A DNA stretch of 64,000 nucleotides, taken from an uncultured cyanobacterium. Lineage in GTDB: Bacteria > Cyanobacteriota > Cyanobacteriia > CAKZMO01. The notes below the pieces were generated by a model, which was given only the letters and a program-made list of their open reading frames with translations, was not told the DNA's origin and ran no database searches. Shown piece after piece: positions 8,810 through 24,794 of the stretch. The first letter of the stretch is position 1; every line of letters starts with the position of its first letter. Made by a program: the position numbers and the translations under genes. The DNA is taken from the NCBI GenBank assembly GCA_963719515.1, contig CAVRCJ010000003.1:448001-512000 (forward strand), in the 5' to 3' direction.

Positions 8810-9095
8810 GGCTGAAGGTCGCTCAGAGCGGCAGGTGCTGGTGTGCCAAAATCGCACCTGCCGTAAGCAGGGGGCGGCAGAGGTGCTGGCGGCGTTTCGC
8901 GACCAGCCGGTTCCGGGGGAGGTGATGGAGAGCGGCTGCCTGGGGCAGTGCGGCAATGGGCCGATGGTGCTGGTGCAGCCGGATGAGGTGTGGTATTGCG
9001 GGGTGCGATCGGAGGAGGTGCCGGCGGTGGTGGAGCGGCATTTGAGAGAGGGGAAGCCGGTGAGGGGGATGCTGTATTCGAAGTTTCATGGGTGA
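8802..9095 (+). CDS. Thioredoxin-like [2Fe-2S] ferredoxin
   Basis: VCQNRTC...GCLGQCGNGP...WY..V....V..VVERHL..GKPV; TTG start with GGAGG 9 nt upstream. Confidence 0.85.
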   Translation: MPEAEGRSERQVLVCQNRTCRKQGAAEVLAAFRDQPVPGEVMESGCLGQCGNGPMVLVQPDEVWYCGVRSEEVPAVVERHLREGKPVRGMLYSKFHG

Positions 9096-9167
9096 TGGAG
9101 GGCGTGCTGCTTGGGGGCTTGGGGGCCAGCGGCCCCCCGCATAGAACGGTATCTGTTAGCAGTTGGA

Positions 9168-9204
9168 GCGGTAGGGTTGGGTGAAGGCTAGCGCAACCTA
9201 CCGC
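9168..9204. repeat. GTAG-type REP-like palindrome
   Basis: GCGGTAGG(G)TTG...CAACCTACCGC between convergent genes. Confidence 0.55.
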
Positions 9205-9218
9205 CACGGGTTGAGCGA

Positions 9219-9530
9219 TTACCCTGTGGGTACGTCGAGCGATCGCAGCCGCATTAGGTAAAACAGCACCTGTCCCTGGCTCTGGGTGATGTTGACGCCG
9301 TTGGGGCCAATCTCGATGGGGCCGGTCCACATGGCCTGCTCCACGTAGCGCTTTAGGTGCAGCCGGTGGATGGTTTCGCGGACGGCTTCGGGGGAGCCGA
9401 TGATGATGTGGTGGACCACTTCGCCGCTGGGGCCAGGGTCGGGGGTGGTGATACGGGTGGGGGCGGCTTCGGTGGCCAGCGCGTCGGGTGCGGCCTCGGG
9501 TTGAGGTCGCTCGGGATATAGAAATGTCAT
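9219..9530 (-). CDS. Hypothetical 103-aa protein (IIGSPEAVRETIHRLHLKRYVE..W motif)
   Basis: ATG at 9530 downstream of a canonical promoter and structured leader. The motif resembles a small uncharacterised cyanobacterial family (from recall, not searched). Confidence 0.65.
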   Translation of the reverse strand: MTFLYPERPQPEAAPDALATEAAPTRITTPDPGPSGEVVHHIIIGSPEAVRETIHRLHLKRYVEQAMWTGPIEIGPNGVNITQSQGQVLFYLMRLRSLDVPTG

Positions 9531-9750
9531 GGGTTTTCTCTTTTTTTGGTGGTAAGAAAACCCAAAAATCGGGTCGATCCCTTGTCTTGGGCGTCTGGGA
9601 TGGCTGCAGATATTGGATAATACCTGCAGCTCATCGACAGGCTGACTCTGTCGAAGGGTCAGGGTGCGGCTGGTGTGTCTCAGCGCCAGTCGCGCCCGTT
9701 TGACCAAATTTTTGGGGTTTGTGGTTAAAGCTGCATCAGGTAACAGCTTC
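9531..9750. ncRNA. Structured 5' leader (- strand) with candidate SymR-like cis-antisense RNA (+ strand, ~9628-9700)
   Basis: Hairpins at 9577-9601, 9603-9630, 9634-9654, 9662-9697 (14 bp, three G-U pairs on + strand) and 9728-9749; long-range pairing 9557-9577/9700-9720. Confidence 0.55.
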
Positions 9751-9759
9751 TAGCAAATG

Positions 9760-9788
9760 AGTGTATCGGCAATGGGGCTTAAAGGCAA
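9760..9788 (-). promoter_or_regulatory. Sigma70-type promoter
   Basis: On the minus strand TTGCCT-17 nt-TACACT. Confidence 0.6.
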
Positions 9789-9912
9789 GGTTGATCTAGA
9801 TATTTTCTTGCCCGTGGTGGGGATTACCTTTGGGCTGAGCCAAGGCAAAGGAGAGCGATCGCCCCGTAGGGTGCCGTTACCGTGGGGTGGCGCACTACCC
9901 AGAGGAGCACGG

Positions 9913-11661
9913 CTAGAGGAACAGCCAGCCGATGATGAGCACGGCGACTAGTAGCCCGACTAAACCCAGGCAATTAGCGGTATCCCGTCGCCGCTTCCGC
10001 GCTACGGGCGTATCATCGCCGATGGCGGGGGCTGAGCGGCGGATTTCTAGGTGACTCTACCTAGATCTTGAATTGCTGTCTTGCATTTCTCTACTTCCTT
10101 TGGCAGCCCTAGCTCCTGAAATAGAGCCTGTGCCGCCTCGTAGCAGGATTGGGCTTCTAATTGCCGATCTACTTTAGTAAGGGTGAGGGCTTTGTTGAAT
10201 AGAGAATTAGCTTCCCCTTGGCGATCGCCAATCTCCCGCGCGATTTCGAGGGATTGCTGATAGAAGTCTATGGCCTGCTGATACTGCCCCAGGGAATGGT
10301 AGGCATTCCCTAGATTGCCGAGTGAGGTTGCCTTCCCCTTGGCGATCGCCAATCTCCCACGCGATTTCGAGGGATTGCTGATGGAAGTCGATGGCCTGCT
10401 GATACTGCCCCAGTGAATTGTAGGCATTCCCCAGATTGCCGAGTGAGGTGGCTTCCCCTTGGCGATCGCCAATCTCCCGTGATTTCGAGGGATTGCTGAT
10501 GGAAATCGATGGCCTGCTGATACTGCCCAGGAATGTAGGCACCCCAGATTGCTTGCCTCCCCACAATCGCCAATCTCTCGTGATTTCGAGGGATTGCTGA
10601 TGGAAGTCGATGGCCTGCCGATACTGCCCCAGTGAATAGTAGACATTCCCCAGATTGTTGAGAGAGTTTGCTTTCCCTTTGGACTCACCAATCTCTCTCG
10701 CGATTTCGAGGGATTGCTGATGGAAGTCGATGGCTTGCTGATACTGCCCCAGAGACTGGTAGGCATTCCCCAGATTGTCAAGTGAGTTTGCTTCCCCTTG
10801 GGGATCGCCCAGCTCACGATACAGCACCAGCGCTTGTTGATAATAGTCAAGACTTTGAAACGGACGCCCGCAATGCCGCAGCGAATCTCCCAAATTGCGC
10901 AGCGATCGCGCCTGCCCAGATACGTCCTTTTTGCGTTTTGCCAGCCCCAGCGCCTTCTCATACTGCTCCAGGGCCATAGAGTAGTCATACTCACTCTCCC
11001 AAGCCTTCCCCAAGTCGTTGTAAAGCGTAATCAAAAGTGGCGAATCTGACTCTATATCCGCAATTTGCTGCTGCAGTTCCTCAATAGAGAGCTGCCCTTT
11101 CCGGTCCGCCCGGTCTGTCTCCTGCATCTGCGGCAACTGCCCCTCTTGCCCCGCAGCCACCACCGACTCCGCCACAAACTCAAACACCCCGCTGCGCCAG
11201 CTCCAAAAGTCCGGTGCCGCCCGCGAAAGCCGCGTCGCAATCGAATCCGCCAGCCACAGCACAATAGGGAACTCAAACTGCCGCAGCGCCTCCCGCGTCC
11301 ACTGCAGCGAAAAGAAAAACCGCTCCTGCTCTGACTGCTCTTGGTTTAGCCGCACCCCCAGCAGCTCGCTAGCATTCACTATTGTCACCATCGCCGTCCC
11401 GTCCCGCAGGGCAGGCTCGCGGGCTACCATCGCCTCCAGCGTTGCCCGCAGACTGGGCTGCTTAGGGTCGAGTCGTGCCCGCAGTGGGGTGATGCCTGCC
11501 TGATTTAGCTCCGCCTCGTAGTTCTCAATCAGCTGGGCCTGCAGGTTGCGATCGTCGCATATGGCTAGCAGAAGGTCGAGCTGCTGGGCGCTGGCCTTGA
11601 TGGATACTAGTAGCTTGCGGTATTCGCGCTGGTTGAGGCGATCGAGGTCGGGGGGCGTCAT
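9913..11661 (-). CDS. TPR repeat protein with conserved N-terminal domain and C-terminal TM anchor; several frameshifts
   Basis: N-terminal LQWTREAL..FEFPIVLWL...APDFWSWRSGVFEF; 40-aa (120-bp) repeats EANSLxNLGNAYxSLGQYQQAIDFHQQSLEIAREIGDRQG; shifted tail ...RKRRRDTANCLGLVGLLVAVLIIGWLFL* ending at 9913. Confidence 0.75.
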
Positions 11662-21719: not shown

Positions 21720-23039
21720 TTAGATTTGGGCAAACAGCGACGTGTCTAGCTGCCCGAAGTTGGTGGTTAGCGCTACGTTGAGCAGCTCTAGAGCATGGAC
21801 TAGCCAGCTCACCGCATCGCGGCGGTGGGTTTCGTAGTGGTTAAATAAAATCGAGAACCGACGCTCAAGGTAGGGGCGGACCCGGCGACAAAGCAGCACC
21901 AGCTTCAGCAGCAGCCCCATGGTGCGCACGGGGCCGATGTTGTTGAGCAGGTCTACGAAGACGAAGTGCTGCGGATTTCTGGGTCCGTCAACCACCAAGA
22001 AGTTAAAGAGATAGCTACAGGTGCGAACAATGAGAAAGTCGTTGACTAGCACCGAATCGCTCTCGGGTAAAATCGCCTCTAGCTGATTGCACAGCTGCTG
22101 GTTGAACTGACGGCGGCCATAGCCTTGATCAACCCCATCAACTAAGTAGTGGTAGAGGTCTTTTTTAAAGGACAGGTAGGGCTGCGCATAGCCGCTGCTG
22201 GCCATAAAGTTTTGCGCCAGATCCTGATAGGTGCGTCCGGGCGAGACAGAGCAGGCGTAGTGCTTAACGGCCTGGTTGAGGGCGCGATCGCTCAGCAGCG
22301 TTGGGTTGAGAATGCGAGACCTGTAATATCTGTTGGACTCAGGGTCTTGAGTCTTGACGCTCCGCACCTGGGCCGTCAGGTATTTAGAGAGGGCAATCTC
22401 AAACTCTGATTGGGCGCTGACCTGAATATTACGAACCGTGCGCCGATGTTCTTTAGGGCTATCTTCGCTGACAAGGCAGTGGGGGTAGAGATAGGGATAG
22501 CGGCAGATGAGCGTGCCGAGCAGTCGGCTGCTGCTGCCGGAGACGTTGGCCCGCAGCAGTTCGGCCAGCCGCCGTAGGGTAAGGTACTGCTCTGTGGTCA
22601 CGAACTGGCGCATCAGCTCCCGCAGTCGCCGGACGTAGTGGTGACGCCACACGCCCGCAACAGGGGCATCGGGAACCCGCTGAAAAAGATCGATGAGCTG
22701 GATGATGTTTGCTTTGGCTTGGGAGCGCGACTGCCAGCGGTTGATCAAGATGTGGCAGCAGCGGTTGACGATGTAGCGAAACTCCTGCGGCGCTGTCGGC
22801 GAGGCCGTTATTGTGTCGAGCGCTTTGGCCACTGCGGTATCGGGGTAGTGATACCCCTCGATGAATAGAGTTTTAAACCGACAAAGCATCTGCTCTGGAG
22901 ACTCCTTGTCGATCCAGAAGAGTAGATGATTGTAGATGAGCTGTTCATCCGTTGTGATGAACCGGCTGTAGTGCCCCTTAGATAAAACTGCCACCTGGTG
23001 GTCTTCCTCAAAGTTGAGCGAGGTATAGTAACGCAGCAA
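21720..23039 (-). CDS. Hypothetical protein, apparently of a conserved cyanobacterial type; function unknown
   Basis: 439-aa ORF with motifs NRCCHILINRW, RYPYLY.HCL and L.VRTCS.L.NFLVV; start uncertain. Confidence 0.7.
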   Translation of the reverse strand: MLRYYTSLNFEEDHQVAVLSKGHYSRFITTDEQLIYNHLLFWIDKESPEQMLCRFKTLFIEGYHYPDTAVAKALDTITASPTAPQEFRYIVNRCCHILINRWQSRSQAKANIIQLIDLFQRVPDAPVAGVWRHHYVRRLRELMRQFVTTEQYLTLRRLAELLRANVSGSSSRLLGTLICRYPYLYPHCLVSEDSPKEHRRTVRNIQVSAQSEFEIALSKYLTAQVRSVKTQDPESNRYYRSRILNPTLLSDRALNQAVKHYACSVSPGRTYQDLAQNFMASSGYAQPYLSFKKDLYHYLVDGVDQGYGRRQFNQQLCNQLEAILPESDSVLVNDFLIVRTCSYLFNFLVVDGPRNPQHFVFVDLLNNIGPVRTMGLLLKLVLLCRRVRPYLERRFSILFNHYETHRRDAVSWLVHALELLNVALTTNFGQLDTSLFAQI

Positions 23040-23525
23040 GTGCGATTGTTTCAGATCACCTTCCGAAACCTGTAATCCCTACCTATTATGGCCCAAGACC
23101 TGACCGTTGAATCAGTGATTATCGTCACGGTTGTCCCTAAAGATTCAGTAAACTTACTGCCGAGTTGAACAAGGTAACGTTAAGTGCTGGTTAGGGTCGA
23201 AGAACCGATCGCCCGACGGCTGCGCTCAAGCGATCGCTCAAATCATAGCGTCTCCAGTAAAGAACATCTGGCTTATCGGGGACAACTGCTTCAGCGGCAC
23301 AGGAGTTCATATTGCCACAGACCAATTGCCGCGATCGTGAGCTAGTTCTCTCAGGACTTTCAAATTGAGAATTTGTTCCCCTCGCAGCTCTCGGGGCACC
23401 CTCCCATCCGTTTAATTGTGGCCATCTACTTATAGGAAACGCCGTAAGACCCATCCGCTTTAGCGGTGGGATATAAGGCGGTGAGCGTAGCAAACATATG
23501 CAAAACCCCTGCTGTGACTGGGATT

Positions 23526-23534
23526 TGCTATAAT
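23526..23534 (+). promoter_or_regulatory. Extended -10 promoter inside the element
   Basis: TGCTATAAT, a perfect TGnTATAAT. Confidence 0.7.
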
Positions 23535-23537
23535 AAA

Positions 23538-23700
23538 GGCGGTCAATGACCCACCCGAGACGCAGACGTAACAGACAGCCTAACGTGACGAAATCGGTAA
23601 TCAGCTGATGGCGCGGAAAGCTCGGTAGACCGGGAAAAGAGGATAGGGCAACGGAAACGACCCTAGAATCAACAATCGACATAGAATTCCTTGAATTCAA
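23538..23700 (+). ncRNA. Candidate structured ncRNA of unknown class
   Basis: Stems GGTC/GACC, CCGAG/CTCGG, GCC/GGC enclosing CCTAAC/GATGG, TAGGG/CCCTA with inner CG-GAAA-CG, and GAATTC/GAATTC; no credible + strand ORF. Confidence 0.5.
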
Positions 23701-23708
23701 CAAAGAAG

Positions 23709-23867
23709 AACCGTAGGGCTTGCGGGGATAGTCTGTGGAGCGATCGTAAGACCGGAAAGGTTTAGGCCTCGAAGGCAGATGCTACGAAGCAGAAACCTCC
23801 TCGGGTGACCGGGGAATCCCACGTGCTTTAGCCGTGGGAGTAGTCAATTTCTATCGTTAGGTACGAC
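23709..23867 (+). ncRNA. TnpB omegaRNA/reRNA-like scaffold plus flanking guide (23848-23867)
   Basis: ACCGTAGGG...TCTGTGGAG...GAAGCAGAAA...GAATCCC...TCAA layout typical of tnpB 3' ends; vestigial TVGLAGIVCG translation. Confidence 0.7.
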
Positions 23868-23870
23868 CCC

Positions 23871-24794
23871 ATGACCGTCCCCTCCCTAGCTGGACGTGAC
23901 TTCCTCCGTATGGCCGACTTGAGCAGTGCTGAGGTCATGCAGCTGCTCGATCTTGCCGCTCAGCTCAAAGCTGGAGAGATTCGTCCTCAGTGCCATAAGA
24001 TTTTGGGCCTGCTGTTCAGCAAAGCCTCCACACGCACTCGGGTTAGTTTTTCGGCAGCCATGTATCAGTTAGGGGGGCAGGTCCTAGATCTCAACACCAA
24101 CGTCACCCAGGTCAATCGGGGTGAACCCCCACAGGACACAGCCCGCGTGCTGGACCGCTACCTCGATGTGCTGGCCATTCGCACCTACGCCCAGTCCGAG
24201 CTAGAAACCTTTGCCCACTACGCCAAGATTCCGGTAATTAACGCGCTCACCGACCTAGAGCATCCTTGCCAAATCCTAGCGGACCTGCTAACCATCCAGG
24301 AGGCGTTTGGGAGCTTGGATGGGCTGACCCTAGCCTACTTAGGGGACGGCAACAACGTTGCCCATTCCCTCATGCTGGGATGCGCTTTAGTGGGCATCAC
24401 CATCGTGGTGGCTACGCCGGAGGGCTACCAGCCTTCTCCGGAGGTCGTCGCCAGCGCAACGAAGCTAGCGGGAGACCGCGCTCAGGTTAAGGTCACCACA
24501 GAGCCTATCGACGCGGTGAAAGGGGCTCATGTCCTCTACACGGACGTCTGGGCCAGCATGGGCCAGGAAGCCTCCGCCTCCAACCGCGTGCCGGTGTTTC
24601 AGCCCTACCAAATTAACGCCGACCTGCTGGCAAATGCCCACAAAGATGCCATCGTGCTGCACTGTCTGCCCGCCCATCGGGGAGAAGAGATTTCAGAAGA
24701 GGTTATGGAGGGGGAACGCTCCCGCATTTGGGACGAGGCCGAGAACCGGCTTCATGCTCAGAAGGCTCTGCTCGTGGCGCTTCTAGGGGTATAG
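23871..24794 (+). CDS. argF: Ornithine carbamoyltransferase
   Basis: STRTR, HPCQ, GDGNNV, YTDVWASMG and HCLP. Confidence 0.96.
   Translation: MTVPSLAGRDFLRMADLSSAEVMQLLDLAAQLKAGEIRPQCHKILGLLFSKASTRTRVSFSAAMYQLGGQVLDLNTNVTQVNRGEPPQDTARVLDRYLDVLAIRTYAQSELETFAHYAKIPVINALTDLEHPCQILADLLTIQEAFGSLDGLTLAYLGDGNNVAHSLMLGCALVGITIVVATPEGYQPSPEVVASATKLAGDRAQVKVTTEPIDAVKGAHVLYTDVWASMGQEASASNRVPVFQPYQINADLLANAHKDAIVLHCLPAHRGEEISEEVMEGERSRIWDEAENRLHAQKALLVALLGV

Follow-up and report, generated by a model that had tools for sequence, protein, structure and literature searches.

Within a 64,000-nucleotide stretch of an uncultured cyanobacterial genome (GenBank assembly GCA_963719515.1, contig CAVRCJ010000003.1, positions 448,001 to 512,000 of the forward strand; hereafter the window, with all coordinates counted from its first base), positions 23434-23847 are a 414-bp transposable element of the IS200/IS605 group of insertion sequences (IS) that carries no protein genes. 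Its layout comprises a left end (LE), a conserved -10 promoter and a 307-nt RNA gene (23541-23847), in which a conserved, folded 5' domain appears to be joined to a TnpB guide RNA (omegaRNA) as a single promoter-driven unit, an arrangement that a first-pass annotation of the sequence had put forward; the family to which this unit belongs is both mobile and widespread. On balance, we consider it probable that the element is non-autonomous and of the palindrome-associated transposable element (PATE) type, borrowing TnpA and TnpB in trans whilst expressing an extended omegaRNA of its own, the ~170-nt leader of which aids it in cis. The features on which this reading draws are as follows.

23430..23433, plus strand: TTAT target, or transposon-adjacent motif (TAM), present at 5/5 copies and at the empty site of a congener (G009)
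23434..23502, plus strand: LE, with subterminal hairpin arms at 23450-58 and 23463-70, recognised by its likeness to the LEs of local IS copies
23503..23540, plus strand: promoter region, with an extended -10 box, TGcTATAAT (23526-34), and a remnant of the LE hairpin of the foreign family
23541..23710, plus strand: structured, conserved 5' RNA domain, recognised from cyanobacterial homologues and covariation
23711..23813, plus strand: TnpB omegaRNA scaffold core, with a CCGN hairpin (23711-25), a GUCUGUGGAGCG...GAAGCAGAAA core and a GUGA-capped terminal stem (23800-13)
23814..23847, plus strand: right end (RE), with GAAT (23814-17), a hairpin (23818-38) and the TCAA cleavage motif (23844-47)
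23848..23863, plus strand: predicted guide segment of the omegaRNA, taken from flanking DNA according to the TnpB/omegaRNA model

Boundaries and mode of insertion

The first-pass annotation had recognised a protein-free IS200/IS605 element at these coordinates, and its LE, its promoter and the GAAT-hairpin-TCAA series of its RE all proved to be present, with exact boundaries in 5/5 copies. Five copies, 89-100% identical, are present in the genome (G000, 21 contigs), and each starts directly 3' of TTAT, closes with GTCAA and lies between flanks unrelated to those of the others. At the window insertion, the two flanks when joined correspond to an uninterrupted site in all three congeners in which the junction could be aligned (G009, G011 and G012), and in G009 the TTAT is followed immediately by the window's right flank; four congeners retain the synteny of the flanks and lack the element, their homology restarting exactly at 23848. 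Comparison of the joined flanks with congeners revealed no target-site duplication, and insertion next to TTAT without duplication is the insertion mode of the IS200/IS605 group. The LE and RE hairpins (23450-70 and 23818-38) resemble each other and those of local IS copies, and there are no terminal inverted repeats. Past movement of the element is suggested by a single line of evidence, namely its presence/absence polymorphism among congeners.

One of the five copies (G000:C20:68507-70233, loci L004/L006) has itself been split at element position ~326-335 by a 1.7-kb insertion, the split ends overlapping by ~10 bp. The insertion encodes a 476-aa protein that, by eye, looks like a DDE-type transposase of another IS.

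A non-coding 5' domain

The middle of the element had been judged not to resemble decayed transposase or TnpB coding sequence, and this judgement was borne out: element positions 70-277 contain no tnpA/tnpB-like translation and show no blastn similarity (word size 7) to full-length IS copies, and tblastn with local TnpB and TnpA against the same positions gave nothing better than E=0.07, the match of these proteins at E=0.001 falling solely within the omegaRNA part (element 283-395). A 170-aa open reading frame (ORF) on the minus strand had 0 Pfam matches at E<=10. Degenerate tnpA/tnpB was rejected as the origin of the middle on these tblastn and Pfam results. Indels of relatives in the 5' domain have lengths that are not multiples of three and, because the loop of the hairpin termed H5 below varies in this way, the conserved CCCUAGAAUC stands in differing frames. 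A small ORF behind the Shine-Dalgarno (SD)-like AAGAGGA plus AUG was also considered and rejected, the window copy having no AUG.

The middle could not be assigned to a named RNA family on first inspection, and the 5' domain is likewise without a family match in Rfam 15, which returned no match at gathering score for the window or for any of 12 related loci. Over 23300-23950 at a cut-off of E<=10, there was no ribozyme or intron among its matches, which comprised only four weak hits to small RNAs (sRNAs).

Distribution of the RNA unit

A search with the middle alone against a phylum sample of 401 genomes gave homologues in 24 of them (E<=1e-6, 70-87% identity), twelve further weak matches being probably due to chance. 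In 23 of the 24 fetched loci, the homologous stretch begins shortly before 23541 and extends right to the end of the RE, and the whole RNA unit is 70-88% identical across many cyanobacterial genera. An invariant 20-mer pattern occurs in at least 120 stretches of genome_contigs, with ~17 matches estimated to arise by chance; 80 of these stretches were fetched and 73 match the profile of the whole RNA. Nearly all of the 73 are titled as cyanobacteria, with a few as 'uncultured bacterium', and the genera among them include Microcoleus, Moorena, Calothrix, Tolypothrix, Nostoc, Tychonema, Roseofilum and Crocosphaera; culturable carriers include Calothrix brevissima NIES-22, Tolypothrix sp. FACHB-123 and Microcoleus vaginatus. 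The seven without a profile match are non-cyanobacterial records, and their number accords with the estimate for chance matches. Within the class, the spread is patchy: a covariance model of the 5' domain found it in 11 of 151 sampled genomes and 10 of 80 genera. In its own genome, the model recovered the five known copies only, with no divergent extra copies. Phage carriage is not supported, with a single motif match in viral_contigs that the covariance model did not confirm, and plasmids yielded one match only, to the scaffold alone, in an Acaryochloris plasmid.

Among the loci examined, the 5' domain is always fused to the scaffold. No relative places the RNA upstream of an intact tnpB, as tnpB was found in cis at 0/24 loci of the phylum sample and at 0/80 of those from genome_contigs, two of the latter having an unrelated tnpB in opposite orientation near the unit. 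In a Microcoleus sp. N3A4 contig (L093, 307-3926), two units in inverted orientation are separated by ~1.2 kb, and one of the two breaks off after profile position 195. Another carrier genome, G147, also has short elements devoid of protein genes that are of a second type (L203, C1:973040-973420; L204, C3:160620-160990); they have the LE and omegaRNA family of the window element, together with a different leader of ~80 nt and an extra GGCUUAAGCC scaffold hairpin.

Structure and covariation of the 5' domain

The helices that comparison of the homologues points to are listed below.

P1, 23541-51, plus strand: hairpin at +1
H2 (GCC/GGC), 23578-80/23610-12, plus strand: supported by covariation
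H3, 23594-98/23604-08, plus strand: supported by covariation
CCCG/CGGG long-range helix, 23554-57 with 23631-34, plus strand: the alternative is a local hairpin at 23622-33
H5, 23645-48/23661-64, with inner pairs 23652-53/23658-59, plus strand
H6, 23684-89/23693-98, plus strand

Nested stems had been drawn in the first pass from one sequence; with homologues from many cyanobacterial genera in alignment, the helices of the RNA unit are seen to covary. In a MAFFT alignment of 22 sequences (A2) that was fitted to no structure, and over 24 pairs, 97.3% of cells in the 5' domain were paired, against a shuffled mean of 89.9%; 10 pairs had changed on both sides (shuffled mean 5.3), as had 46 cells (shuffled mean 13.2), and none of 500 shuffles came up to these values. 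Sliding the 3' partners reduced pairing to 20-51%. The best-supported helices are H2, in which 62 of 90 sequences have GC and 26 have CG, H3, with covariation at all five pairs, the H5 hairpin, and a variable hairpin just before the scaffold, at the position of the window's GAATTC repeat, which forms in 87 of 88 relatives. Of the stems originally proposed, GCC/GGC and TAGGG...CCCTA are kept and covary and the GAATTC-position hairpin persists, but CCGAG/CTCGG was upheld only in part: its two outer pairs fail in 14/21 and 17/22 sequences, whilst the three inner pairs are kept. The bases of this stem can alternatively form the CCCG/CGGG long-range helix, which is paired in 100% of cells; three A-U double changes among the 90 sequences favour it, and two A-G breaks count against the local UCGG/CCGG hairpin.

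The single-sequence fold of the RNA reached z = -1.9 only, plain mutual information over the 90 sequences was left unused because subfamily signal dominated it, and a scan for long-range helices between the 5' domain and the scaffold gave few candidates, none of them convincing given the number of comparisons. The proposed docking of a GAAA tetraloop into an 11-nt receptor did not survive comparison, as only two of the 79 parsed members, both of them in this genome, have a GNRA tetraloop at H5, where 38 of the 79 have GNRAA-like pentaloops. Among the 90 sequences, the receptor motifs GAUGG and CCUAAC occur in 2 and 44, respectively, and UAUGG and CCUAAG in none.

Conservation is not confined to helices. 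Long single-stranded stretches, for example CGGUAGACCGGGAAAAGAGGAU, are invariant across genera, and the 5' domain also contains an invariant, purine-rich, SD-like stretch, GGGAAAAGAGGA. The GUAGAC of the 5' domain is complementary to GUCUGU in the omegaRNA core, an invariant motif whose other pairing partner is GCAGA.

Promoter and start of transcription

A TAnnnT box stands at -12..-7 from the start of the RNA (the first G of GGUC) in all 54 of 54 foreign units, and is preceded by TGn in 27 of them. In the full-length IS of relatives, a leaderless or near-leaderless tnpB promoter occupies the same position, right after the LE hairpin, so that the stretch from the start site to the first scaffold hairpin is precisely where the RNA domain has taken the place of the ORF. 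Transcription of the window copy is predicted to begin at 23541, the G of GGUCAAUGACC.

Scaffold, right end and guide

Towards its 3' end, the element (positions 278-414) is 76-85% identical to the 3' end of tnpB in the local copies C11f and C18f, and 69-70% identical to that of other local IS copies. This shared part overlaps the C-terminus of TnpB, which is the usual place of omegaRNA scaffolds, and its helices covary. The scaffold core (23732-23795) gives an end-to-end but weak match to the Rfam family RAGATH-18 (RF03064; 20.5 bits, E=0.39), and the RE with adjoining scaffold (23793-23847) is 98% identical to C11f. TTAT followed by the flank 23848-23863 equals the empty donor joint, and this flank, which differs in each of the five copies, is presumably where the guide would be read.

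The terminal scaffold stem (columns ~426-445 of alignment A1; window 23796-23813) occurs among the five copies in two versions, each fully compensated: C3 and C14 have CCUCGG...CCGGGG, and C15 and C5 have UCUUGGAG...AUCCAAG. Each version is identical to one local full-length IS subtype; the pattern suggests gene conversion between RNA-only and tnpB-bearing copies.

Mosaic make-up and module exchange

Judged by identity along its length, the window copy is a mosaic in which local IS ends surround an imported RNA module. The LE is 84% identical to that of the local 1.35-kb tnpB IS copies, as against a median of 29% to foreign RNA units. For the 5' domain, the relationship is reversed, with at most 29% identity to local IS copies and up to 88% (median 75%) to foreign units. 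The last 55 nt return to the local pattern, at 98% to C11f versus 75% for the best foreign unit and a median of 53%. In copies C15 and C5, the terminal stem is that of the other local IS subtype, and the units of Moorena and several others have different ends. The existence of units with different ends implies that the RNA module moves between IS end types, an exchange that we infer to have occurred by recombination with resident copies.

TnpA and TnpB available in trans

Eight resident 1.35-kb tnpB-only IS copies are found in the genome, and have in common with the element the LE (positions 7-69) and the last ~137 nt (278-414). An intact 413-aa TnpB frame, with Pfam matches to OrfB_IS605, Cas12f1-like_TNB and HTH_OrfB_IS605, is present in four of the eight, the reading frame being split in the other four (C5, C19, C11 and C18); the five RNA-only elements are therefore about as numerous as the four intact TnpB genes. 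The Y1_Tnp profile was matched over its whole length in nine open frames of the genome. An autonomous IS605-type element (G000:C16:~8973-10646) at a TTAC target carries divergent tnpA (153 aa) and tnpB (~420 aa) genes; its LE and RE are 79% and 88% identical to those of the short element, with similar hairpins and a different omegaRNA scaffold. Close TnpB orthologues (68-77% identity) are encoded in four of the five other genomes that carry the unit.

Proposed mechanism and alternative explanations

On the reading favoured here, the element would have retained the LE, the former tnpB promoter, the omegaRNA scaffold and the RE of a tnpB-only IS, with an RNA leader of ~170 nt in place of the tnpB ORF. 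A transcript that starts at ~23541, spans the 5' domain and scaffold and continues past the RE into the flank would constitute a long omegaRNA, the guide of which would match the empty donor site; TnpB supplied in trans could then cut the vacated site with this RNA, and the element would be recopied by homologous repair, following the model of homing and retention by TnpB set out in Meers et al. 2023 (PMC10055086). The 5' domain would act in cis for the benefit of the element, most likely by raising the level of the omegaRNA, its folding or its loading into TnpB when the context of the tnpB mRNA is missing. It opens with a hairpin exactly at +1 and, like the SD-like purine run, such a hairpin is a known type of 5' stabiliser. 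Binding and use of the element's RNA by TnpB are predicted, cognate TnpB genes being present in the genome.

It is worth noting, however, that several points weigh against this reading. A strict sigma-70 scan for two hexamers found 0 sites, and there is no good -35 box; -10-only promoters are common in cyanobacteria, and the absence of a two-hexamer site fits a promoter of that kind. The argument for expression is the conservation of the promoter and nothing beyond it, so the start site, read-through and processing stand as predictions. The conserved single-stranded parts would fit a specific partner as well as they would a generic stabiliser. Lastly, no TnpB of the carrier genome G147 exceeds 41% identity to the cognate protein, and the short PATEs of that genome, with their different and shorter leader, imply that a PATE can persist without the 170-nt domain.

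Another possibility, which we regard as unlikely, is that the leader functions as an additional scaffold or regulatory domain. It would then make contact with TnpB, with a second protomer or with a host protein, or would switch the omegaRNA between folds, and the outcome would be altered TnpB activity or preferential loading of the parasite RNA instead of mere stabilisation. The long single-stranded stretches that are invariant across genera, the complementarity of GUAGAC to the invariant GUCUGU and the constant fusion of the domain to the scaffold would all accord with such a role; against it, the 5' parts of known omegaRNAs are reported to be dispensable, and GUAGAC and GUCUGU are both invariant, so that their pairing offers no covariation test. 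Similarly doubtful is the proposal that the leader represents a new structured RNA class that makes a gene-less transposon a hyperparasite of TnpB, whether through preferential loading or through gating of the fold by GUAGAC/GUCUGU, and that acts as a portable module, recombining onto the IS ends and TAM in use by the resident TnpA and TnpB. That the 5' domain is a trans-acting sRNA, or other cargo that merely rides on the element while serving the host or regulating IS genes, is quite improbable. Its conserved A-rich single-stranded linkers could serve as seeds, and a co-oriented gene often follows closely on the unit (of 70 units, 31 have a gene in the same orientation within the next 400 nt, 16 have one in the opposite orientation and 23 have none, counts that include orthologous loci and are not independent); however, there is no terminator between the domain and the omegaRNA, a blastn comparison with local IS copies showed no complementarity outside the hairpins, and a patchy, multi-copy spread over variable loci fits a selfish element.

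A conserved, multi-helix RNA with invariant junctions also brings to mind a self-cleaving or self-processing ribozyme, which would trim the 5' end of the omegaRNA or remove the element from host transcripts. By its name, RAGATH-18 is one of the RNA motifs near genes linked to twister and hammerhead ribozymes, which would be in favour of this reading. RNAs derived from RAGATH-18 have, moreover, been tied to the TnpB of IS607 (PMC11061315). The ribozyme likeness seen in the first-pass annotation was nevertheless not sustained and is now very improbable, as Rfam returned no ribozyme or intron in either of the searches described above, the tetraloop-receptor is not conserved, and no conserved junction resembling a cleavage site could be named. 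Least credible of all is that the conserved fold serves the single-stranded DNA (ssDNA) intermediate of transposition, or that the segment is a slowly decaying relic without an RNA role. Elements of the IS200/IS605 group transpose in the form of top-strand ssDNA (Meers et al. 2023, PMC10055086), a molecule identical in sequence to the RNA; yet the promoter lies exactly at the start of the domain in 54/54 units, many G-U pairs and compensatory changes persist at 70-88% identity, and pairing at 97% is not expected of a relic.

Genomic neighbourhood

In the window, 23 nt separate the end of the RE from the ATG of an ornithine/aspartate carbamoyltransferase gene (23871-24794; Pfam OTCace and OTCace_N), into which the element's promoter is directed; the insertion may now drive or alter the expression of this argF-like gene. 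Upstream of the element lies a 439-aa ORF (21720-23039, minus strand), which has no Pfam family at E<=0.001; its 3' flank is conserved in congeners.

Relation to known elements and significance

The first-pass annotation went too far in presenting this kind of element as new. PATEs that carry omegaRNAs are already known, since elements of this description that need TnpB in trans appear in Meers et al. 2023 (PMC10055086), in the words of which PATEs 'often encode omegaRNAs'. The window element is like them in its LE and RE hairpins, its lack of an ORF, its multiple copies, its omegaRNA at the RE and its probable dependence on TnpA and TnpB in trans, but unlike a PATE formed by bare deletion it has a covarying RNA domain of ~170 nt and a fixed promoter, which have been kept across many genera and moved between IS end types. 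With tnpB-only IS200/IS605 elements (IS1341-like) it has the LE, the promoter position, the scaffold core and the RE in common, whereas upstream of the scaffold an unrelated non-coding domain stands where those elements have tnpB coding sequence. The scaffold core shares CUGUGGAG...GAAGCAG with RAGATH-18, which has been described as a source of IS607 TnpB guide RNAs (PMC11061315), but its score falls below the gathering score of 44.9 bits, so that it is not a member of that family, and the match covers the scaffold only and not the 5' domain. IStrons, which combine a group I intron with IS200/IS605 ends and are compared here on the basis of a preprint by Zedaveinyte et al., resemble the element in carrying, as principal cargo, a structured RNA adjacent to an omegaRNA. 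The analogy to them drawn in the first pass does not extend further, as the element has no recognisable group I core or group I intron match, no tnpB and no evidence of splicing.

A conserved, covarying, promoter-linked module of 170 nt that replaces tnpB, occurs in many genera and is exchanged between end types was not found described in the literature searched, which did not include the supplements of the cited papers, and as an RNA motif it is absent from Rfam 15. TnpB and its omegaRNA are ancestral to Cas12 and are used as compact genome editors; to our knowledge, little is understood of how a guide RNA is produced, stabilised and loaded when it lies outside a tnpB mRNA. With its promoter, structured leader and scaffold, this family would represent a natural, stand-alone unit for omegaRNA expression, the leader of which is a candidate natural 5' module for expressing guide RNAs. 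Selection has maintained the unit across many cyanobacterial genera and shifted it between IS subfamilies, and with this family one could ask directly whether elements without genes compete for TnpB.
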